A DNA stretch of 64,000 bases from Polyangiaceae bacterium (GCA_965222375.1 CBDCTZ010000016.1:320001-384000), one strand, 5' to 3'; positions 15,159 to 49,509 are shown, counted from the first letter of the stretch. Numbers and translations: made by a program. The notes: generated by a model not told the origin, from the sequence alone.

Positions 15159-15486
15159 GGCGTCCGCGGTGGTCGACTCTAGACCACTCGCGGCGAGTTC
15201 GAAGCCTTTCGTCTGCGGCCGCTAGACGACCGGGAAATCTGTCGGCCGTGAAAGGCGAACTGCGGCGCCTGCCCTGCGCACCCAGCGCCCCGCGGGGTGC
15301 TGGGCGGACTCGGGCGCCTGCCCGGCGCGCCGCGGGGCCCAGGGAGATGTGATGGGGTGGCTCGTGACCTGGTAGGTAGCCGCCGAGGCGTCTTTCGGAT
15401 GCGGAGGGCTGCCATGGTGGCCGTTCTGCATACGGTGTTCGCTTGGGCGCCGGACGCGCGAGCGATGGCTTTGCGCGAGGCGACAG

Positions 15487-15574
15487 TGGCTGTCTCCTCA
15501 TTAACGAGGTCACCGGAAACCGGGCCTCAATCAACAGACGCGCTCAAAGGCGCAGTGATTAGAGGAGACAGCCA
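15487..15574 (+). promoter_or_regulatory. 13-bp perfect inverted repeat able to sequester the transposase RBS
   Basis: TGGCTGTCTCCTC (15487-99) is complementary to GAGGAGACAGCCA (15562-74), which contains the RBS and the A of ATG. Confidence 0.6.
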
Positions 15575-16158
15575 TGGAGCATATTGGAGTCGATCTGGGT
15601 GGAAAACAATCGCAGGTGTGTGTGCGGGCCGCGGACGAAGGAATTCTGCTGGAGAAGAGGATCGCGACCAGCAGTTTGATGTGCTTCTTTCAGCACCAGC
15701 CCAAGAGCCGAATTGTACTGGAAACGTGTTCGGAAGCATTCCGAGTCGCCGACTGGGCTCTGGAATGTGGACACGAGGTGCGTGTGGTCCCAGCAACGTT
15801 GGTGCGCAGTTTGGGGGTCGGGGCTCGAGGCATCAAGACCGACCGGCGCGATGCGCAGGTCCTCAGCGAAGTCTCGTGCCGTATCGACTTGCCATCGGTG
15901 CACATCCCGGCGGAGCAGGCTCGCGACAGACGCACGATGTGCGCAATGCGCGAGCAACTGCTTGGTGCACGCACGGCATTGGCAAATGCAGTGCAAGGCT
16001 GGAGGCGTACGCAACTGTTGAAAATGTGCTCCGGCGAGCCCACGACCTTGCCCACACGCCTCCGCGCTGCAGCCCTCGCTCATCCCGATGGATTGCCGCA
16101 GCGTAACCGTTCAGGGGTTGGGTTGAGGGCCCGGCTCGGGACGTGAGATTCGTGGCGC

Positions 16159-16572
16159 ATGGCGAAGACGACGAGTAACAGCGAGGGATTGTCGGAGCGG
16201 ATCGAGCAGCTGGTTCGGGAGCACATCGCGGAAAGCCGGCGGAGCGCGCAGGAGGCGGTCGAGCGAGGCTTCGCGGTGGCGGAGACGCGGGCTGCCAGGG
16301 CGCGGAAGTCATCGACAGGGTCGAGAGGTCGCACGGGACGTCGCCGTCCACCCGAGGAAGTTACGGCGATTGGGCAGCGGCTCTACGCGGCCATCTGTGC
16401 GAGCCCCGGCAAGGGCATGGCGGCGCTGGCAGAGGAAGTCGGCATTTCGGTGCGCGAGCTGCACCGACCGATGACGCGTTTGAGGAGTGCGGGGCAGATC
16501 CGGAGCGTCGGTTCCAAGCATCTGACGCGGTACTTCCCGATGGCGGTGGACGCCGCGGCCGATACTGAGTGA
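16159..16572 (+). CDS. Passenger winged-HTH-like protein within IS66
   Basis: AI..SPG...AALAEEVG......L..PM..L...G.I...G....TRYF pattern; identical in both IS copies. Confidence 0.65.
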   Translation: MAKTTSNSEGLSERIEQLVREHIAESRRSAQEAVERGFAVAETRAARARKSSTGSRGRTGRRRPPEEVTAIGQRLYAAICASPGKGMAALAEEVGISVRELHRPMTRLRSAGQIRSVGSKHLTRYFPMAVDAAADTE

Positions 16573-16573
16573 C

Positions 16574-18028
16574 TCAAGCTGCTGCGGTCTTGAACAAGGA
16601 GGGCCAGTTTGTCCCCTCCATGCGAGCTTGGCAGGACTCGGCGAGGAAAGTCAGCACGTTCTTGTTCTGCTTGCGCGCCGTGTGCGCGATGGTCATCACG
16701 CGCTCAGCGAAGACGTTGCCACGCTTGCTCTGGCTTCCGAACGAGCCCTTGCGCCAGAGCACGAAAGCGCGCAGTTCCCTTTCGGCATGGTTGTTTGTCG
16801 GCTCCACGTCATCGCGCTCGATGAAGGTCCAAAGCGCCTCCTTGTATTTCAGAATGTTGGCGCACGACCCCGACAAGTCCTTGATGTCGAGGAGGACAGC
16901 CTTCTCGAACATGGCCTCCATCTGCTGCCGCAGCGGAGCCATCCACGCCAGAAATCGCTCCCGGGTCATTTTCCCCGCCCGGTAGTCGCGCCAATAATCG
17001 AACAAGATGCCGGTGTAGCCGAGCAAGTCTCGGCCAAGCGCGCCGGCGGGACCATCGCGCTCCGAGAACGACACAAACTTACGTAGCAAATGCGCCCAAC
17101 AGATCTGCCGGCGCTCCGCCGCCCAGAAAGTAAGTGCTGTGGCGCGATCACTTACCAAGATCCCATTCAGGTCGCCGAACAACGGCCGGAGTGTGTCTTT
17201 GGCGCCATCGGCGAGGATCCGGAACACCGTCACCGCCGCGGTGGCGATGGTCCAAAGGGACATCGTCGTGCCTGCCTGAAACCAGGTTGTTCCATCGGTG
17301 TGTTTCACATCGGCCTGGACCGCATGGTCCCAGGCTTCATTGACCGCGGGCGCGAGCGCGTCGCTGACGCGCTCTTCGACCGCACTGATCGCGCCGAGTG
17401 AAACCGAGACGCCCAGCACATCGGCAAGTAGCCCTTGCGCCTTGCGCCGGCTGAGATGATACACGCCCGTAAAGAGAGCCACTAACGCCATCAGGCGAGG
17501 TCCAAATGAGGACGTTGGGATCAGAGATTCGTCGTAGCGCGCGCAAGTGACATGGGCGCAGCCTGCGCAGGCTACCGCGTGGCGACGATACTCGGTCGTG
17601 TGCGGGCGGATGGGTGGGACCTCGGTCACCTGGTGACGATGGGCGTGCGGGTCGCGGACTTCCGGCAGCGGTTTCCAGCAATTTTCGCACTCGCGTGGGA
17701 AGTGGTCGACGAACTTGTCCACCTGATCTTCCGGCACCAAGTTTCGGTGGCTGCCCGGGTGCCCCTTCTGCCCACCTCGCTTGCGCTTCTTCTGCTTGGC
17801 CCGCGATCGACGCTCCTTCCGATTGCCCGGGGGATCGCTGGACGGTGGCTTGTGCGAATTCGACGAGTTTTGATTCAGCTTCTCCAGCAAGCTAGCAACC
17901 TGCTGCTCAAGCTCCGCGATGCGGGCATCCTGCTCCGCGATGCGCGCATCCTGCTCCGCGATGCGGGCATCTTTGGCTGCAACTTCAGCCTCGAGCTGCC
18001 GGGTACGGTCGGCCTGCGGATCGCTCAC
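16574..18028 (-). CDS. IS66 transposase (TnpC-like)
   Basis: Coiled coil, NSS.SHKPPSSD, GGQKGHPG, zinc-ribbon cysteines, HTDGT, LVSDR, QICWAHLLR, EPTNNHAERELR. Confidence 0.95.
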   Translation of the reverse strand: MSDPQADRTRQLEAEVAAKDARIAEQDARIAEQDARIAELEQQVASLLEKLNQNSSNSHKPPSSDPPGNRKERRSRAKQKKRKRGGQKGHPGSHRNLVPEDQVDKFVDHFPRECENCWKPLPEVRDPHAHRHQVTEVPPIRPHTTEYRRHAVACAGCAHVTCARYDESLIPTSSFGPRLMALVALFTGVYHLSRRKAQGLLADVLGVSVSLGAISAVEERVSDALAPAVNEAWDHAVQADVKHTDGTTWFQAGTTMSLWTIATAAVTVFRILADGAKDTLRPLFGDLNGILVSDRATALTFWAAERRQICWAHLLRKFVSFSERDGPAGALGRDLLGYTGILFDYWRDYRAGKMTRERFLAWMAPLRQQMEAMFEKAVLLDIKDLSGSCANILKYKEALWTFIERDDVEPTNNHAERELRAFVLWRKGSFGSQSKRGNVFAERVMTIAHTARKQNKNVLTFLAESCQARMEGTNWPSLFKTAAA

Positions 18029-18650
18029 CAGCGTCCCAATCGCCCATTTTTGCGAAGATGGAAAGCCGATTGAAATAATGGAGCAATCTCGATCGCTTGC
18101 GCGAGACCGCGGTGTCCAGGCGCCCTACCCCTGAACGGTTACGCCGCAGCACGTCGAGCGTCTTTTGCAGGCCATCGAAGCTCTCAACGTGCAGATCAAG
18201 GAAGCCAACGAGGAGCTCAGGGCCCTGGCGAAGAAGGACCCAGTCTGTCAGCGTCTCATGACGGTGCCCGGTATCGGTCCGGCAACCAGCATGCGCTTTG
18301 TGGCAGCACTCGACGACAGGACACGTTTTCCGAGCGCTCACTCTGTCGAAGCCTTTCTTGGGCTGACTCCGGGCGAGAAATCCAGCGGCGATCGTCAGCA
18401 ACGGCTCGGGATCACCAAGGCCGGACCGGCGATGGTGCGCACCAACTTGGTGCAGGCGGCGTGGACCTTTCGGCGTACACGGCCCAACGACCCAATGTCC
18501 AAGTGGGCAGAGCAAATCGAGCAACGCCGTGGCAAATTCATCGCTACCGTGGCGTTGGCCCGCAAACTAGCTGGCGTGCTCTTCGCGTTGTGGCGCGACG
18601 GCTCTGTATACGAGCTCAACCATCGAAAGGCAGCGCAAACCGTGGCGTAG

Positions 18651-19009
18651 AAAACCTCCAGACTCCGGCAGCCCACAAGGTTGACCTGAGAAAGCCAATC
18701 AACGGCTGTCCAGAGGCGGTGAGCGCGTTACTCTCGCTCCAGGCGTCCAGCGAAAGCTGGCCACGACCTTGTCACGGCGATTGCGCCCCGCCAACGGACC
18801 TCCACCTATGCGCCATTGCGAGCGCGAATAGTCGATTCAGACAGCCCGTTCTTGGTTTCCTCGTCTTCCGACAAGCCACGACCGCGAATAGTCGATTCAG
18901 ACAGCCTGAGCTGGACTTTCTCCCCAACCAACGCGCTGCCGACGAAGAACTCCCCTCTACCTCAGGGCGACGGACCACTTTGTTCTGGACGGACAGGCCA
19001 CCCCATAGT
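18651..19009 (+). ncRNA. Putative bridge/seek RNA in the IS110 right non-coding end
   Basis: GAGGCG (18713-18) and TACTCTCGC (18729-37) match the two strands of the reconstructed target; ATAGTCGA (18828-35, 18888-95) matches the element end 19005-12. Confidence 0.65.
18823..18906. repeat. 24-nt direct repeat CGCGAATAGTCGATTCAGACAGCC x2 with a 36-nt spacer
   Basis: Copies at 18823-46 and 18883-906. Confidence 0.9.
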
Positions 19010-19057
19010 CGAGAGTAGTGGCCCGGATCCGTCAAGGGACCCGACCCCCAAAACCAA
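19010..19057 (+). repeat. GTAG/REP-like dispersed repeat, copy 3 (IS110-occupied; left flank at 15469-15483)
   Basis: CGAGAGTAGTGGCCC...GGGACCCGACCCCCAAAACCAA. Confidence 0.75.
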
Positions 19058-19081
19058 TTCACCCACGCTGGCTCTACGGCG

Positions 19082-19813
19082 TCAGCACAGGAAGCAGTAG
19101 GGATAGTCCCAGAGCCCGCCGCAGTCGTTGACGCATTCGCTGTGGGTGAGCAGTTGGCCGCGGCAGAAGTGATAGGGCCCGCAGGTGCCTGGGCCCACGC
19201 TGCCCGTGCCGCTGCCGCTTTGGGGACTCGACATGCCTTCGGGCGCGTCTCCGCAGGGGCTGTAGACGCAGTCCGTGGGCGAGAGCTTTCGGCACACTCG
19301 CTCGAAGTTGTCTGCGGAGTTTTCCGCAAAGTTCTTGCTGCTTGCAGACATCGAACCCCAGTTGCGGTGGTCGTCCGCCAGGATGTGGTGCAACTCGTGG
19401 GCGAGGTTTTGGTCGATCTCAGTGCCCGATGCGGTGCTGCGCATCGCGATGATGCTCTGGCCGCCCGCGCCCACGCAGGCGAAGGAGTAGCGATCCGGTG
19501 CGCGCCCCGGCGGGAAGAAGTACACGTCGTTCTGGGCGACGAAGTCTTTGACCTCTTTGCACAGAGCCGTGGAGCGGAAGCGGATCCCGTTCTGAGTCGT
19601 GCTGTCCGGCTTGTAGATCCAGGACGGGCAATTGGCCTGCGCACCCCGAGTCCCGCGGCCTCCACCCACGATGTTCTCGTCGTAGACGCCGCGGGTCAGG
19701 CCGCTGGCCGTGGTGGCGACCGCTTCGCCGGGCTCTTCGTCGGTGTGGGCGGCGCAGCTCGAGGCGGTGATGGTGACCAGGCTTAGCAGGAACGCTGTTC
19801 GAAAAGTCTTCAT
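19082..19813 (-). CDS. Cys-rich lipoprotein with an HExxH motif
   Basis: Lipobox SSC; LAHELHH; Cys-rich tail. Confidence 0.6.
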   Translation of the reverse strand: MKTFRTAFLLSLVTITASSCAAHTDEEPGEAVATTASGLTRGVYDENIVGGGRGTRGAQANCPSWIYKPDSTTQNGIRFRSTALCKEVKDFVAQNDVYFFPPGRAPDRYSFACVGAGGQSIIAMRSTASGTEIDQNLAHELHHILADDHRNWGSMSASSKNFAENSADNFERVCRKLSPTDCVYSPCGDAPEGMSSPQSGSGTGSVGPGTCGPYHFCRGQLLTHSECVNDCGGLWDYPYCFLC

Positions 19814-47075: not shown

Positions 47076-47524
47076 GGGCCCCGCCGTCTCTTGGACGTTG
47101 GCTTGCAGCCAGTGAACCAACGCCTCCAGGGTGAGCCGCCCCGAGGCGACGGACATTACGACGCTTTCCTGTTCGTCGTCCGTAGCGATGATTTCGAAAC
47201 CGTTCAGTACGAGGAAGACTTCCATCGCGGCGTGACCGATTCGCTTGTTTCCGTCGATAAAGGGATGACCTTGTATGAGCGCGAAACCAAGCGCGGCGGC
47301 TTTCTCAACAAGGGTTGGGTGCAGCTCGACACCATCGAACGTGGCGAGAGGTTGTGCGAGTGCGGATTGAACTCGCCCGAGGTCGCGCACACCGGCGGCA
47401 CCGCCGGAAGGTAACCGTTCAGGGGTAGGGCGCCTGGACACCGCGGTCTCGCGCAAGCGATCGAGATTGCTCCATTATTTCAATCGGCTTTCCATCTTCG
47501 CAAAAATGGGCGATTGGGACGCTG

Positions 47525-48979
47525 GTGAGCGATCCGCAGGCCGACCGTACCCGGCAGCTCGAGGCTGAAGTTGCAGCCAAAGATGCCCGCATCGCGGAGC
47601 AGGATGCGCGCATCGCGGAGCAGGATGCCCGCATCGCGGAGCTTGAGCAGCAGGTTGCTAGCTTGCTGGAGAAGCTGAATCAAAACTCGTCGAATTCGCA
47701 CAAGCCACCGTCCAGCGATCCCCCGGGCAATCGGAAGGAGCGTCGATCGCGGGCCAAGCAGAAGAAGCGCAAGCGAGGTGGGCAGAAGGGGCACCCGGGC
47801 AGCCACCGAAACTTGGTGCCGGAAGATCAGGTGGACAAGTTCGTCGACCACTTCCCACGCGAGTGCGAAAATTGCTGGAAACCGCTGCCGGAAGTCCGCG
47901 ACCCGCACGCCCATCGTCACCAGGTGACCGAGGTCCCACCCATCCGCCCGCACACGACCGAGTATCGTCGCCACGCGGTAGCCTGCGCAGGCTGCGCCCA
48001 TGTCACTTGCGCGCGCTACGACGAATCTCTGATCCCAACGTCCTCATTTGGACCTCGCCTGATGGCGTTAGTGGCTCTCTTTACGGGCGTGTATCATCTC
48101 AGCCGGCGCAAGGCGCAAGGGCTACTTGCCGATGTGCTGGGCGTCTCGGTTTCACTCGGCGCGATCAGTGCGGTCGAAGAGCGCGTCAGCGACGCGCTCG
48201 CGCCCGCGGTCAATGAAGCCTGGGACCATGCGGTCCAGGCCGATGTGAAACACACCGATGGAACAACCTGGTTTCAGGCAGGCACGACGATGTCCCTTTG
48301 GACCATCGCCACCGCGGCGGTGACGGTGTTCCGGATCCTCGCCGATGGCGCCAAAGACACACTCCGGCCGTTGTTCGGCGACCTGAATGGGATCTTGGTA
48401 AGTGATCGCGCCACAGCACTTACTTTCTGGGCGGCGGAGCGCCGGCAGATCTGTTGGGCGCATTTGCTACGTAAGTTTGTGTCGTTCTCGGAGCGCGATG
48501 GTCCCGCCGGCGCGCTTGGCCGAGACTTGCTCGGCTACACCGGCATCTTGTTCGATTATTGGCGCGACTACCGGGCGGGGAAAATGACCCGGGAGCGATT
48601 TCTGGCGTGGATGGCTCCGCTGCGGCAGCAGATGGAGGCTATGTTCGAGAAGGCTGTCCTCCTCGACATCAAGGACTTGTCGGGGTCGTGCGCCAACATT
48701 CTGAAATACAAGGAGGCGCTTTGGACCTTCATCGAGCGCGATGACGTGGAGCCGACAAACAACCATGCCGAAAGGGAACTGCGCGCTTTCGTGCTCTGGC
48801 GCAAGGGCTCGTTCGGAAGCCAGAGCAAGCGTGGCAACGTCTTCGCTGAGCGCGTGATGACCATCGCGCACACGGCGCGCAAGCAGAACAAGAACGTGCT
48901 GACTTTCCTCGCCGAGTCCTGCCAAGCTCGCATGGAGGGGACAAACTGGCCCTCCTTGTTCAAGACCGCAGCAGCTTGA
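47525..48979 (+). CDS. IS66 transposase (TnpC-like)
   Basis: Identical protein to 16574-18028. Confidence 0.95.
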   Translation: MSDPQADRTRQLEAEVAAKDARIAEQDARIAEQDARIAELEQQVASLLEKLNQNSSNSHKPPSSDPPGNRKERRSRAKQKKRKRGGQKGHPGSHRNLVPEDQVDKFVDHFPRECENCWKPLPEVRDPHAHRHQVTEVPPIRPHTTEYRRHAVACAGCAHVTCARYDESLIPTSSFGPRLMALVALFTGVYHLSRRKAQGLLADVLGVSVSLGAISAVEERVSDALAPAVNEAWDHAVQADVKHTDGTTWFQAGTTMSLWTIATAAVTVFRILADGAKDTLRPLFGDLNGILVSDRATALTFWAAERRQICWAHLLRKFVSFSERDGPAGALGRDLLGYTGILFDYWRDYRAGKMTRERFLAWMAPLRQQMEAMFEKAVLLDIKDLSGSCANILKYKEALWTFIERDDVEPTNNHAERELRAFVLWRKGSFGSQSKRGNVFAERVMTIAHTARKQNKNVLTFLAESCQARMEGTNWPSLFKTAAA

Positions 48980-48980
48980 G

Positions 48981-49394
48981 TCACTCAGTATCGGCCGCGG
49001 CGTCCACCGCCATCGGGAAGTACCGCGTCAGATGCTTGGAACCGACGCTCCGGATCTGCCCCGCACTCCTCAAACGCGTCATCGGTCGGTGCAGCTCGCG
49101 CACCGAAATGCCGACTTCCTCTGCCAGCGCCGCCATGCCCTTGCCGGGGCTCGCACAGATGGCCGCGTAGAGCCGCTGCCCAATCGCCGTAACTTCCTCG
49201 GGTGGACGGCGACGTCCCGTGCGACCTCTCGACCCTGTCGATGACTTCCGCGCCCTGGCAGCCCGCGTCTCCGCCACCGCGAAGCCTCGCTCGACCGCCT
49301 CCTGCGCGCTCCGCCGGCTTTCCGCGATGTGCTCCCGAACCAGCTGCTCGATCCGCTCCGACAATCCCTCGCTGTTACTCGTCGTCTTCGCCAT
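48981..49394 (-). CDS. Passenger winged-HTH-like protein within IS66
   Basis: Identical to 16159-16572. Confidence 0.65.
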   Translation of the reverse strand: MAKTTSNSEGLSERIEQLVREHIAESRRSAQEAVERGFAVAETRAARARKSSTGSRGRTGRRRPPEEVTAIGQRLYAAICASPGKGMAALAEEVGISVRELHRPMTRLRSAGQIRSVGSKHLTRYFPMAVDAAADTE

Positions 49395-49509
49395 GCGCCA
49401 CGAATCTCACGTCCCGAGCCGGGCCCTCAACCCAACCCCTGAACGGTTACGCCGGAAGAGGCTACCAGGGCAGCGTGAAGCCTGAGCACCTCGCCGAGTG
49501 TCAGGAACC

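Follow-up and report, generated by a model that had tools for sequence, protein, structure and literature searches.

An IS1111-type insertion sequence of a Polyangiaceae bacterium probably carries one bridge RNA with a partial duplication rather than a guide array

Positions 18696-18853 of the 64,000-nucleotide stretch of Polyangiaceae bacterium DNA analysed here (hereafter the window) probably encode one bridge RNA, a "long seekRNA", of an IS1111-type insertion sequence rather than an array of guides, a reading in which we have good confidence; the additional guide-like segment that follows it, module 4, is most likely a tolerated relic. An initial annotation of the same sequence had instead proposed four ~60-nt guide-like modules, with CG-containing cores near 18717, 18778, 18833 and 18893, as a possible multi-specificity bridge-RNA array. 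We retain its numbering of the modules.

We identify 15345-19009 as an IS1111-type insertion sequence, ~1.62 kb when uninterrupted, with the flagged stretch (18700-18920) lying within its 3′ non-coding region (Table 1). BLAST of the whole genome returned eight copies of this element, of which seven are intact and one, the window copy, is split by an IS66-family element. An 8-bp duplication at 16095-16102 and 18143-18150, seen as an 8-bp overlap in BLAST against the intact copies, brackets the IS66-family insertion. All eight copies are identical over 18640-19018, and sequence divergence among them starts upstream of G15344 and downstream of 19018. The intact transposase gene (L001:415-1443) encodes 342 aa, within the ~330-350 aa expected for an IS1111 DEDD transposase with a PF02371 C-terminal domain, and the flagged stretch lies directly 3′ of its stop codon at 18650. 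Non-coding sequence amounts to 359 nt (18651-19009) downstream of the gene, compared with 229 nt upstream, as is characteristic of the IS1111 group.

The ends of the element also have the IS1111 form. The published rule is a 7-bp left and a 3-bp right extension past subterminal inverted repeats of usually 11-13 bp (PMC11187229), and repeat lengths of 7-17 are given by Durrant et al. (PMC11208160); here 7 bp lie beyond the left repeat and 3 bp beyond the right, with a perfect repeat of 10 bp. The 7/3 rule, the spacing of the REP sequences and four relatives inserted in other targets all place the element at 15345-19009. Two other boundary models were rejected. The first counted GAGAGTAG as IS sequence, which belongs to the REP-like target. 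The second invoked a GAGA core, for which 0 REP sites have the needed spacing of 3-4 versus 63 with a spacing of 6, and the 7/3-nt rule and the relatives also fix the ends. Contigs from the organism's own sequencing runs, X3 and X4, break at the IS ends; a joint (749->1499) in a single contig of X4 was set aside as it comes from another element, with 7 other letters in 59. Neither a circle junction nor an empty site appeared in these runs, an absence that carries no weight in contig data.

The element lies in a REP-like repeat family with the form TGGCCC-N5-GAGAGTAG-TGGCCC, in which GAGAGTAG is at the centre. The right arm is present at 105 of the 245 genomic GAGAGTAG sites, and a C occupies position -1 in 99 of these 105. 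All eight insertions occur at one position in the repeat and in one orientation, without target duplication, and thus have the site- and orientation-specificity of the IS1111 group, the insertion point being deduced from REP spacing and relatives, as no orthologous empty site was recovered; on the same grounds the IS would have inserted between the G and the C of ...G|CGAGAGTAG. The eight occupied left flanks carry 0, 0, 1, 1, 1, 2, 2 and 2 mismatches to CACGG, while none of the 279 other genomic CGAGAGTA sites is perfect for CACGG and 69 have at most two mismatches. The genome has two sites that match CACGG|CGAGAGTA perfectly, and the IS already occupies both. Twelve empty CGAGAGTA sites deviate from CACGG at a single position and are candidate targets for later insertions. 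The two junctions, LT|AG on the left (15344/15345) and RE|CG on the right (19009/19010), contain no repeated core dinucleotide, and the right flank begins with CG in 30 of the 39 elements compared.

Table 1. Coordinates, in the window, of the insertion sequence, its target and the predicted parts of its guide RNA.
Feature	Position	Strand	Remarks
IS1111-type insertion sequence	15345-19009	+	8 genomic copies with exactly these ends; fits the IS1111 7-bp/3-bp rule
Left end: 7-nt extension AGATGTG (15345-51) and subterminal inverted repeat ATGGGGTGGC (15352-61)	15345-15361	+	
Transposase, N-terminal part, DEDD/RuvC-like domain	15574-16102	+	PF01548, E 6e-12
IS66-family element inside the transposase gene	16103-18142	-	PF03050 and DUF6444 on a 484-aa ORF
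Transposase, C-terminal part	18143-18650	+	PF02371, E 5e-23
P1 5′ strand, core GGCTGTC at 18704-10; can pair with 18840-62 or 18900-22	18688-18710	+	
P3 5′ strand (GGCGG-T-GAGCGCG), closing the putative target-binding loop; position initially given for module 1	18715-18727	+	
Predicted top-strand target guide TTACTCTCG, reverse complement CGAGAGTAA; target right half CGAGAGTAG	18728-18736	+	Covariation with right flanks
Variable hairpin within the target loop, followed by conserved ACGACC	18738-18768	+	
Predicted bottom-strand target guide (module 2): 18773-77 CACGG = last 5 nt of left flank, 18778-79 CG = first 2 nt of right flank	18769-18781	+	
P3 3′ strand (18782-92) and 3′ strand of GTCC/GGAC helix P2 (18796-99)	18782-18799	+	
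Single-stranded CTCCACCTA, candidate left-end guide	18800-18808	+	Columns 124-125
Hairpin P5 (TGCGC/GCGCG); 18809-13 with 18822-26	18809-18826	+	Alignment fold
Predicted donor (right-end) guide AATAGT|CGATT, same sense as IS right end (module 3)	18827-18837	+	Covaries with right-end extension
P1 3′ strand, canonical copy	18840-18862	+	
Module 4: GCCACGACC, second donor-guide copy (18884-97), second P1 3′ strand (18900-22)	18875-18922	+	
Right end: subterminal inverted repeat GCCACCCCAT (18997-19006) and 3-nt extension AGT	18997-19009	+	
Right half of REP-like target (CGAGAGTAGTGGCCC)	19010-19024	+	Left half at 15334-15344

Relatives of the element came from several searches. The sampled genomes yielded transposases at ≤54% identity, and profile scanning of metagenome contigs turned up 80 loci that are 52-68% identical. 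When 401 order genomes and 383 family genomes were searched at the DNA level, the non-coding region was recovered from 16 and 22 further genomes, respectively, at 68-91% identity. A 15-mer scan of genome contigs returned 118 stretches, nearly all of them chance matches, of which three encode a transposase relative; two others (L062 and L102) consist of the non-coding region only, and three look-alikes (L070, L078 and L103) appear unrelated. None of the 70 candidates from a protein-pattern scan of genome contigs with the transposase was confirmed. The alignment used below (A2) comprises 39 distinct elements in different targets.

This alignment points to one conserved, covariation-supported RNA at about 18696-18853 rather than to four units. 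Its 27 base pairs are paired in 94.8% of cases, compared with 34-43% when partners are slid, with RNAalifold and the pair count in agreement; compensatory changes are found in 18 pairs, and 0 of 500 shuffles reach any of these measures. The closing helix P1 pairs 18698-18706 with 18844-18853 in the alignment and extends up to 18688-18710 with 18840-18862 in single-sequence folds, its complementarity being visible between AACGGCTGTC (18701-10) and GACAGCCCGTT (18840-50). P3, which pairs 18715-18727 with 18782-18792, shows compensatory changes in 9 of its 11 pairs and is paired in 97.9% of cells, while P2 pairs GTCC at 18708-11 with GGAC at 18796-99. For the GTC of the P1 5′ strand, both 18840-42 and 18797-99 are possible partners; the columns are invariant, so covariation leaves this choice undecided. 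Helix strands across 18708-18727 are nearly invariant in the 39 elements despite their different targets. As in seekRNAs and bridge RNAs, the conserved secondary structure would present the guides in loops. TRF found no tandem array in the region, no Rfam family matched 15200-19200 at E up to 1, and a scan of 18500-19100 for promoters and terminators found none.

This fold changes how several of the initially described features are read. The sequences taken for local hairpins after CGATT are instead the 3′ strands of long-range helices, 18782-18792 pairing with 18715-18727 and 18840-18853 with 18698-18710. The proposed match of module 1 to the REP target is real, but it lies at 18728-18736 and not at ~18717, which is conserved scaffold. 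Similarly, the four guide-like segments are all guide-bearing strands of an IS110-family guide RNA, but they are not four equal ~60-nt units, and only modules 3 and 4 are homologous.

Both predicted target guides covary with the sites in which the relatives are inserted. The top-strand guide matches the right flanks at 291 of 351 positions across 39 elements, compared with a permutation mean of 152 ± 8 that 0 of 5000 permutations raise to the observed value. For the bottom-strand guide, the number of elements, out of 38, that agree with the left flank at positions -1 to -5 is 36, 32, 29, 33 and 25, and over six positions 160 of 228 match, versus 60 ± 7 in permutations (0 of 5000 reach). Module 2 varies with the target rather than being invariant across homologues, and is therefore a true guide. 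In the window element the effective bottom-strand guide is CACGG|CG (18773-79), which perfectly matches only two of the eight left flanks. It overlaps the top-strand guide (18728-36) on CG, the arrangement of guides in seekRNAs and bridge RNAs, with covariation in 38-39 elements. These covariation data show that modules 1 and 2 are the top- and bottom-strand guides of one target-binding loop, directed at one REP-like target. The initial annotation had held that module 2 matches neither target nor donor and predicts a second insertion site; since it copies the left half of the same REP-like site, with covariation in 38 elements, no second site is predicted. On the left, 5 nt plus CG are programmable across the 39 reprogrammed relatives; on the right, about 9 nt are.

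A close relative from an estuary illustrates the same pattern. It is represented by contigs of two metatranscriptome runs, X1 and X2, from two studies, and is ~95% like 18660-18858 (L001 1453-1651). It differs at six places. Two of them (18731 and 18734) fall in the top-strand guide, three (18770, 18775 and 18776) fall in the bottom-strand guide, and the sixth is 18761. Both target guides are thereby changed, to TTATTCCCG and TCGTCATCG, while the scaffold is unchanged. These contigs come from RNA libraries in which DNA carry-over is possible, and they give neither RNA ends nor proof of transcription.

Outside P3, every aligned element carries the sequence (A/G)ATA(G/C/A)T|CGA after P5. In 38 of the 39 elements its variable base is also the one in the middle of the 3-nt extension at the right end (AGT in 25, ACT in 12 and AAT in 1), the remaining element having a damaged end. 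Because this base tracks the right-end extension, we read module 3 as a same-sense guide for the IS right end. The earlier observation that modules 3 and 4 match the donor is borne out, ATAGTCGA at 18828-35 and 18888-95 being the IS right end plus its flank. A mutual-information scan of the 39 elements found no clear left-end guide, only two weakly complementary columns: A2 columns 124-125 (18803-18804) are complementary to left-end positions 5 and 4 in only 27 and 25 of 39 elements. Separately, T18781 (A2 column 100, after CGA) equals left-end position 4 (AGA[T/A/G]) in 39/39 elements, with a mutual information of 1.05, and resembles a handshake guide.

These features suggest the following scheme. 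P1 (18698-18710 with 18840-18853) and P3 (18715-18727 with 18782-18792) would frame two guide-bearing regions. In the target loop inside P3, the guide at 18728-18736 would pair with the top strand of CGAGAGTA(G), the right half of the REP-like repeat, and the guide at 18773-18779, in the sense of CACGG|CG, would pair with the bottom strand of the left half together with the first two bases of the right half. The donor part would lie outside P3, where the strand after P5 at 18827-18835 (AATAGT|CGA) is same-sense with the IS right end. To judge from its homologues ISEc11 and IS621, the 342-aa DEDD transposase would bind this RNA and insert the excised IS between the G and the C of ...CACGG|CGAGAGTAG..., with fixed orientation and without target duplication. 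The ends, target family, helices and guide covariation in this scheme are taken from the data, while transcription, protein binding and chemistry are what we infer by analogy.

Module 4 repeats part of this RNA. The repeated frame, the 24-nt exact repeat and the 5′/3′ pairing are present as initially described, their coordinates being confirmed on the sequence. GCCACGACC occurs at 18760-18768 and 18875-18883, followed by the 9-mer TTGTCACGG (18769-77) or GCGAATAGT (18884-92) and then by CGATT (18778-82 and 18893-97). The 24-nt exact repeat, at 18823-18846 and 18883-18906, consists of the donor guide plus GACAGCC of P1, and it sits as a core in a 44-nt repeat of 82% identity with a spacing of 60 nt. 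Beyond the core, 19 of 36 bases still agree between the two 60-nt units, compared with a null of 9.1 ± 2.6 and an equal or higher count at 2 of 1170 window offsets. This similarity exceeds chance, and the extent of divergence outside the core suggests that the duplication of module 4 is old. By eye, a third, decayed unit might begin near 18940. Modules 3 and 4 carry the same guide, and module 4 therefore adds no new specificity.

The second copy is restricted to this lineage in the material sampled. All eight genomic copies carry it, but they are identical and so count as one observation. Among 75 elements the window element alone has a second copy of the module at ≤7 mismatches in 24; the duplication is thus found in 8/8 genomic copies and in 0/74 relatives, rather than being unique to the window copy. 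Comparison of related non-coding ends for module number, a check that the initial annotation had proposed, gave a single donor module in 69 of the 80 metagenome loci and two in none; the other 11 have none, and 6 of these 11 have <140 nt of downstream sequence. No homologue of module 4 was found in the 401 order and 383 family genomes, where all matches end at or before query base 181 (window 18866), a 20-mer of the repeat had 0 matches in viral contigs, and the non-coding region had no match in plasmids. One estuary read passes 18858 into sequence resembling the start of module 4 and ends before the guide. A direct-repeat scan of 84 elements found repeats inside the RNA in the window element and in two others. 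One of these (L233, in genome G386) has a 54-nt unit that starts in the donor guide, has no transposase beside it and has two 3′ strands complementary to its 5′ strand; the other (L232, in G375) has a 22-nt repeat of the P1 5′ strand. Six more loci were scanned, none with a repeat in the RNA, although one of them (L252, in G456) has its right end duplicated.

We consider module 4 most likely to be a tolerated, lineage-specific local duplication of 60 nt, its neutrality and origin being what we infer from this distribution. The simple internal duplication that the initial annotation had offered as its fallback fits module 4. As to origin, one possibility is that the element's own recombinase acted at the guide DNA, which is right-end-like by necessity. 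Tandem non-coding repeat units beside IS110 transposases, the boundaries of which keep left-donor-only matches, are described in a 2026 preprint (10.64898/2026.08.14.744561); the guide DNA here is a left-donor-type match as in those units, and such an origin of the duplication is therefore plausible.

An unlikely reading, which keeps a minority chance, is that selection maintains module 4 as a functional alternative to the first 3′ strand. The RNA would then have two P1 conformers, for example a longer read-through form with the copy 2 donor guide next to P1, that could tune maturation or the balance between excision and insertion. The core is identical at 24/24 positions compared with 19/36 elsewhere, and we estimate the probability of zero mismatches in 24 nt of a 44-nt repeat with 8 mismatches at ~0.01 under uniform divergence. 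Pairing with the P1 5′ strand is also stronger for the tail of module 4 than for copy 1 (-25.8 vs -23.0 kcal/mol), a value attained by 20 of 5000 shuffles and by 2 of the 1676 16-mers in the window, and in the ensemble predicted for 18686-18924 it is copy 2 that closes P1, at pair probabilities of 0.96-0.99 (-85.6 vs -82.4 kcal/mol when each is forced). However, such thermodynamic prediction ignores co-transcriptional folding and protein, and the P5 hairpin, which precedes the guide in all 39 aligned elements, is absent before copy 2. Module 4 is present in all eight transposed copies, so the element has transposed with it, although eight identical copies are one observation. The estuary read that continues into module-4-start-like sequence and the two 3′ strands kept by the transposase-less L233 also speak for this reading; on the other hand, the small duplications that recur in the closest subfamily (L232, L233 and L252) look haphazard, differing in their units and breakpoints, and a second copy in 1 of 75 elements with 0 homologues in 784 genome searches gives no conservation that would show selection.

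We regard as very improbable that the repeated 24-mer is instead a DNA-level pseudo right end, serving as a decoy or as an alternative end for shorter mobile units in the manner of the ISPpu9 A′/B′ boxes. ISPpu9 forms circles from alternative end boxes (PMC12288879); in the window element the guide's own DNA matches the guide over 14 nt, compared with 8 nt for the true end, and GACAAGCCAC before module 4 resembles GACAGGCCAC before the true end. The pseudo-ends nevertheless have no full inverted repeat, whereas all nine genomic ATAGT|CGAGAGTA junctions, eight from elements and one from a solo end, carry the full subterminal repeat. The genome contains exactly 16 occurrences of the 24-mer, which corresponds to eight copies with two each, and no truncated element ending at 18832 or 18892 was found among the nine junctions.

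Least credible of all is the array as first proposed, four equivalent modules with at least two target specificities and module 2 aimed at a second site: although GACC-N9-CGA(T/A)T recurs as a frame at least once and the 9-mer of module 2 differs from that of module 4 and varies between relatives, both frames occur in all 39 aligned elements as the target strand and donor strand of one RNA, the variable bases of module 2 copy the left flank of the site whose right flank pairs with module 1, modules 3 and 4 are the same guide, TRF detects no array, all eight insertions fall in one site class, and the equivalent units with their own guide per target that would define a tandem guide array are not seen.

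The single bridge RNA that we favor resembles the IS1111 seekRNAs of ISEc11, ISPa11, ISKpn4 and ISPst6 (Siddiquee et al. 2024, PMC11187229), in the features that the parts of that paper used here describe. These include a non-coding region 3′ of a ~340-aa DEDD transposase, subterminal inverted repeats with 7-nt and 3-nt extensions, a top-strand match located 5′ of a bottom-strand match with the two overlapping in the target, and natural reprogramming among relatives. The "long seekRNA" form measures 145-170 nt in that account, which leaves its role open, and the RNA here would be about 150 nt. As with ISPa11 at GG*CG (PMC13604230, in a table), insertion here also adjoins CG. Unlike in the seekRNA account, the strand copying the IS right end is conserved here and covaries with that end, and it is present in a second copy.

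The RNA also shares features with the bridge RNA of IS621 and the IS110 group, as presented by Durrant et al. (2024, PMC11208160), namely two opposite-strand target guides and a donor-recognising region in one RNA, together with a base adjoining the guide that tracks the other substrate in a handshake-like manner. The same study predicts that 93% of IS1111 elements carry a bridge RNA with donor-complementary loops in their right end. In contrast with the IS110 group, the RNA here lies 3′ of the gene, the order of the guides is reversed, no core dinucleotide is duplicated at the two junctions and a left-end guide is only weakly indicated. The tandem non-coding units of IS110 elements (10.64898/2026.08.14.744561) are likewise local repeats beside a transposase with a left-donor-type match in each unit, here ATAGT|CG; however, they represent expansion of an IS110 locus, with 0 occurrences of "IS1111" in the available text of that preprint, while the 60-nt repeat here is inside the guide-RNA region. 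ISPpu9 and MITEPpu9 (PMC12288879) are comparable as an IS110-family element in REP sequences with repeated end-like boxes, but those boxes lie on either side of a separate sRNA gene and give rise to alternative circles, whereas no element ends at the 24-mer here. We found no description of a duplicated donor-guide strand inside an IS1111 guide RNA in those portions of the literature that were searched.

The reading of this locus as a natural multi-target guide array is thus removed, and what remains is an IS1111-type bridge RNA that is well resolved and carries a partial duplication specific to this lineage. The 39 relatives form a natural reprogramming series that places both target guides, the right-end guide and the handshake-like base to the nucleotide. 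Were module 4 functional, it would offer a precedent from nature for controlling a bridge RNA through its conformation, and a two-state RNA, if real, could time RNA activity or bias excision versus insertion.

Several further observations concern the surroundings of the element. An ORF of 243 aa at 19082-19813 on the minus strand adjoins the IS; it has a signal-peptide-like start, an HELHH motif and many cysteines, and had no match in Pfam at E up to 0.001. A solo right-end remnant with ~50 nt of the IS lies in a REP-like site elsewhere in the genome (G000 C14:932102-932160, L003), where the upstream sequence is unrelated. The IS66-family element that splits the transposase gene carries a 137-aa HTH ORF besides its 484-aa transposase, and ends matching the same IS66-family element occur elsewhere in the window (about 47411-49452) and twice on contig C5.
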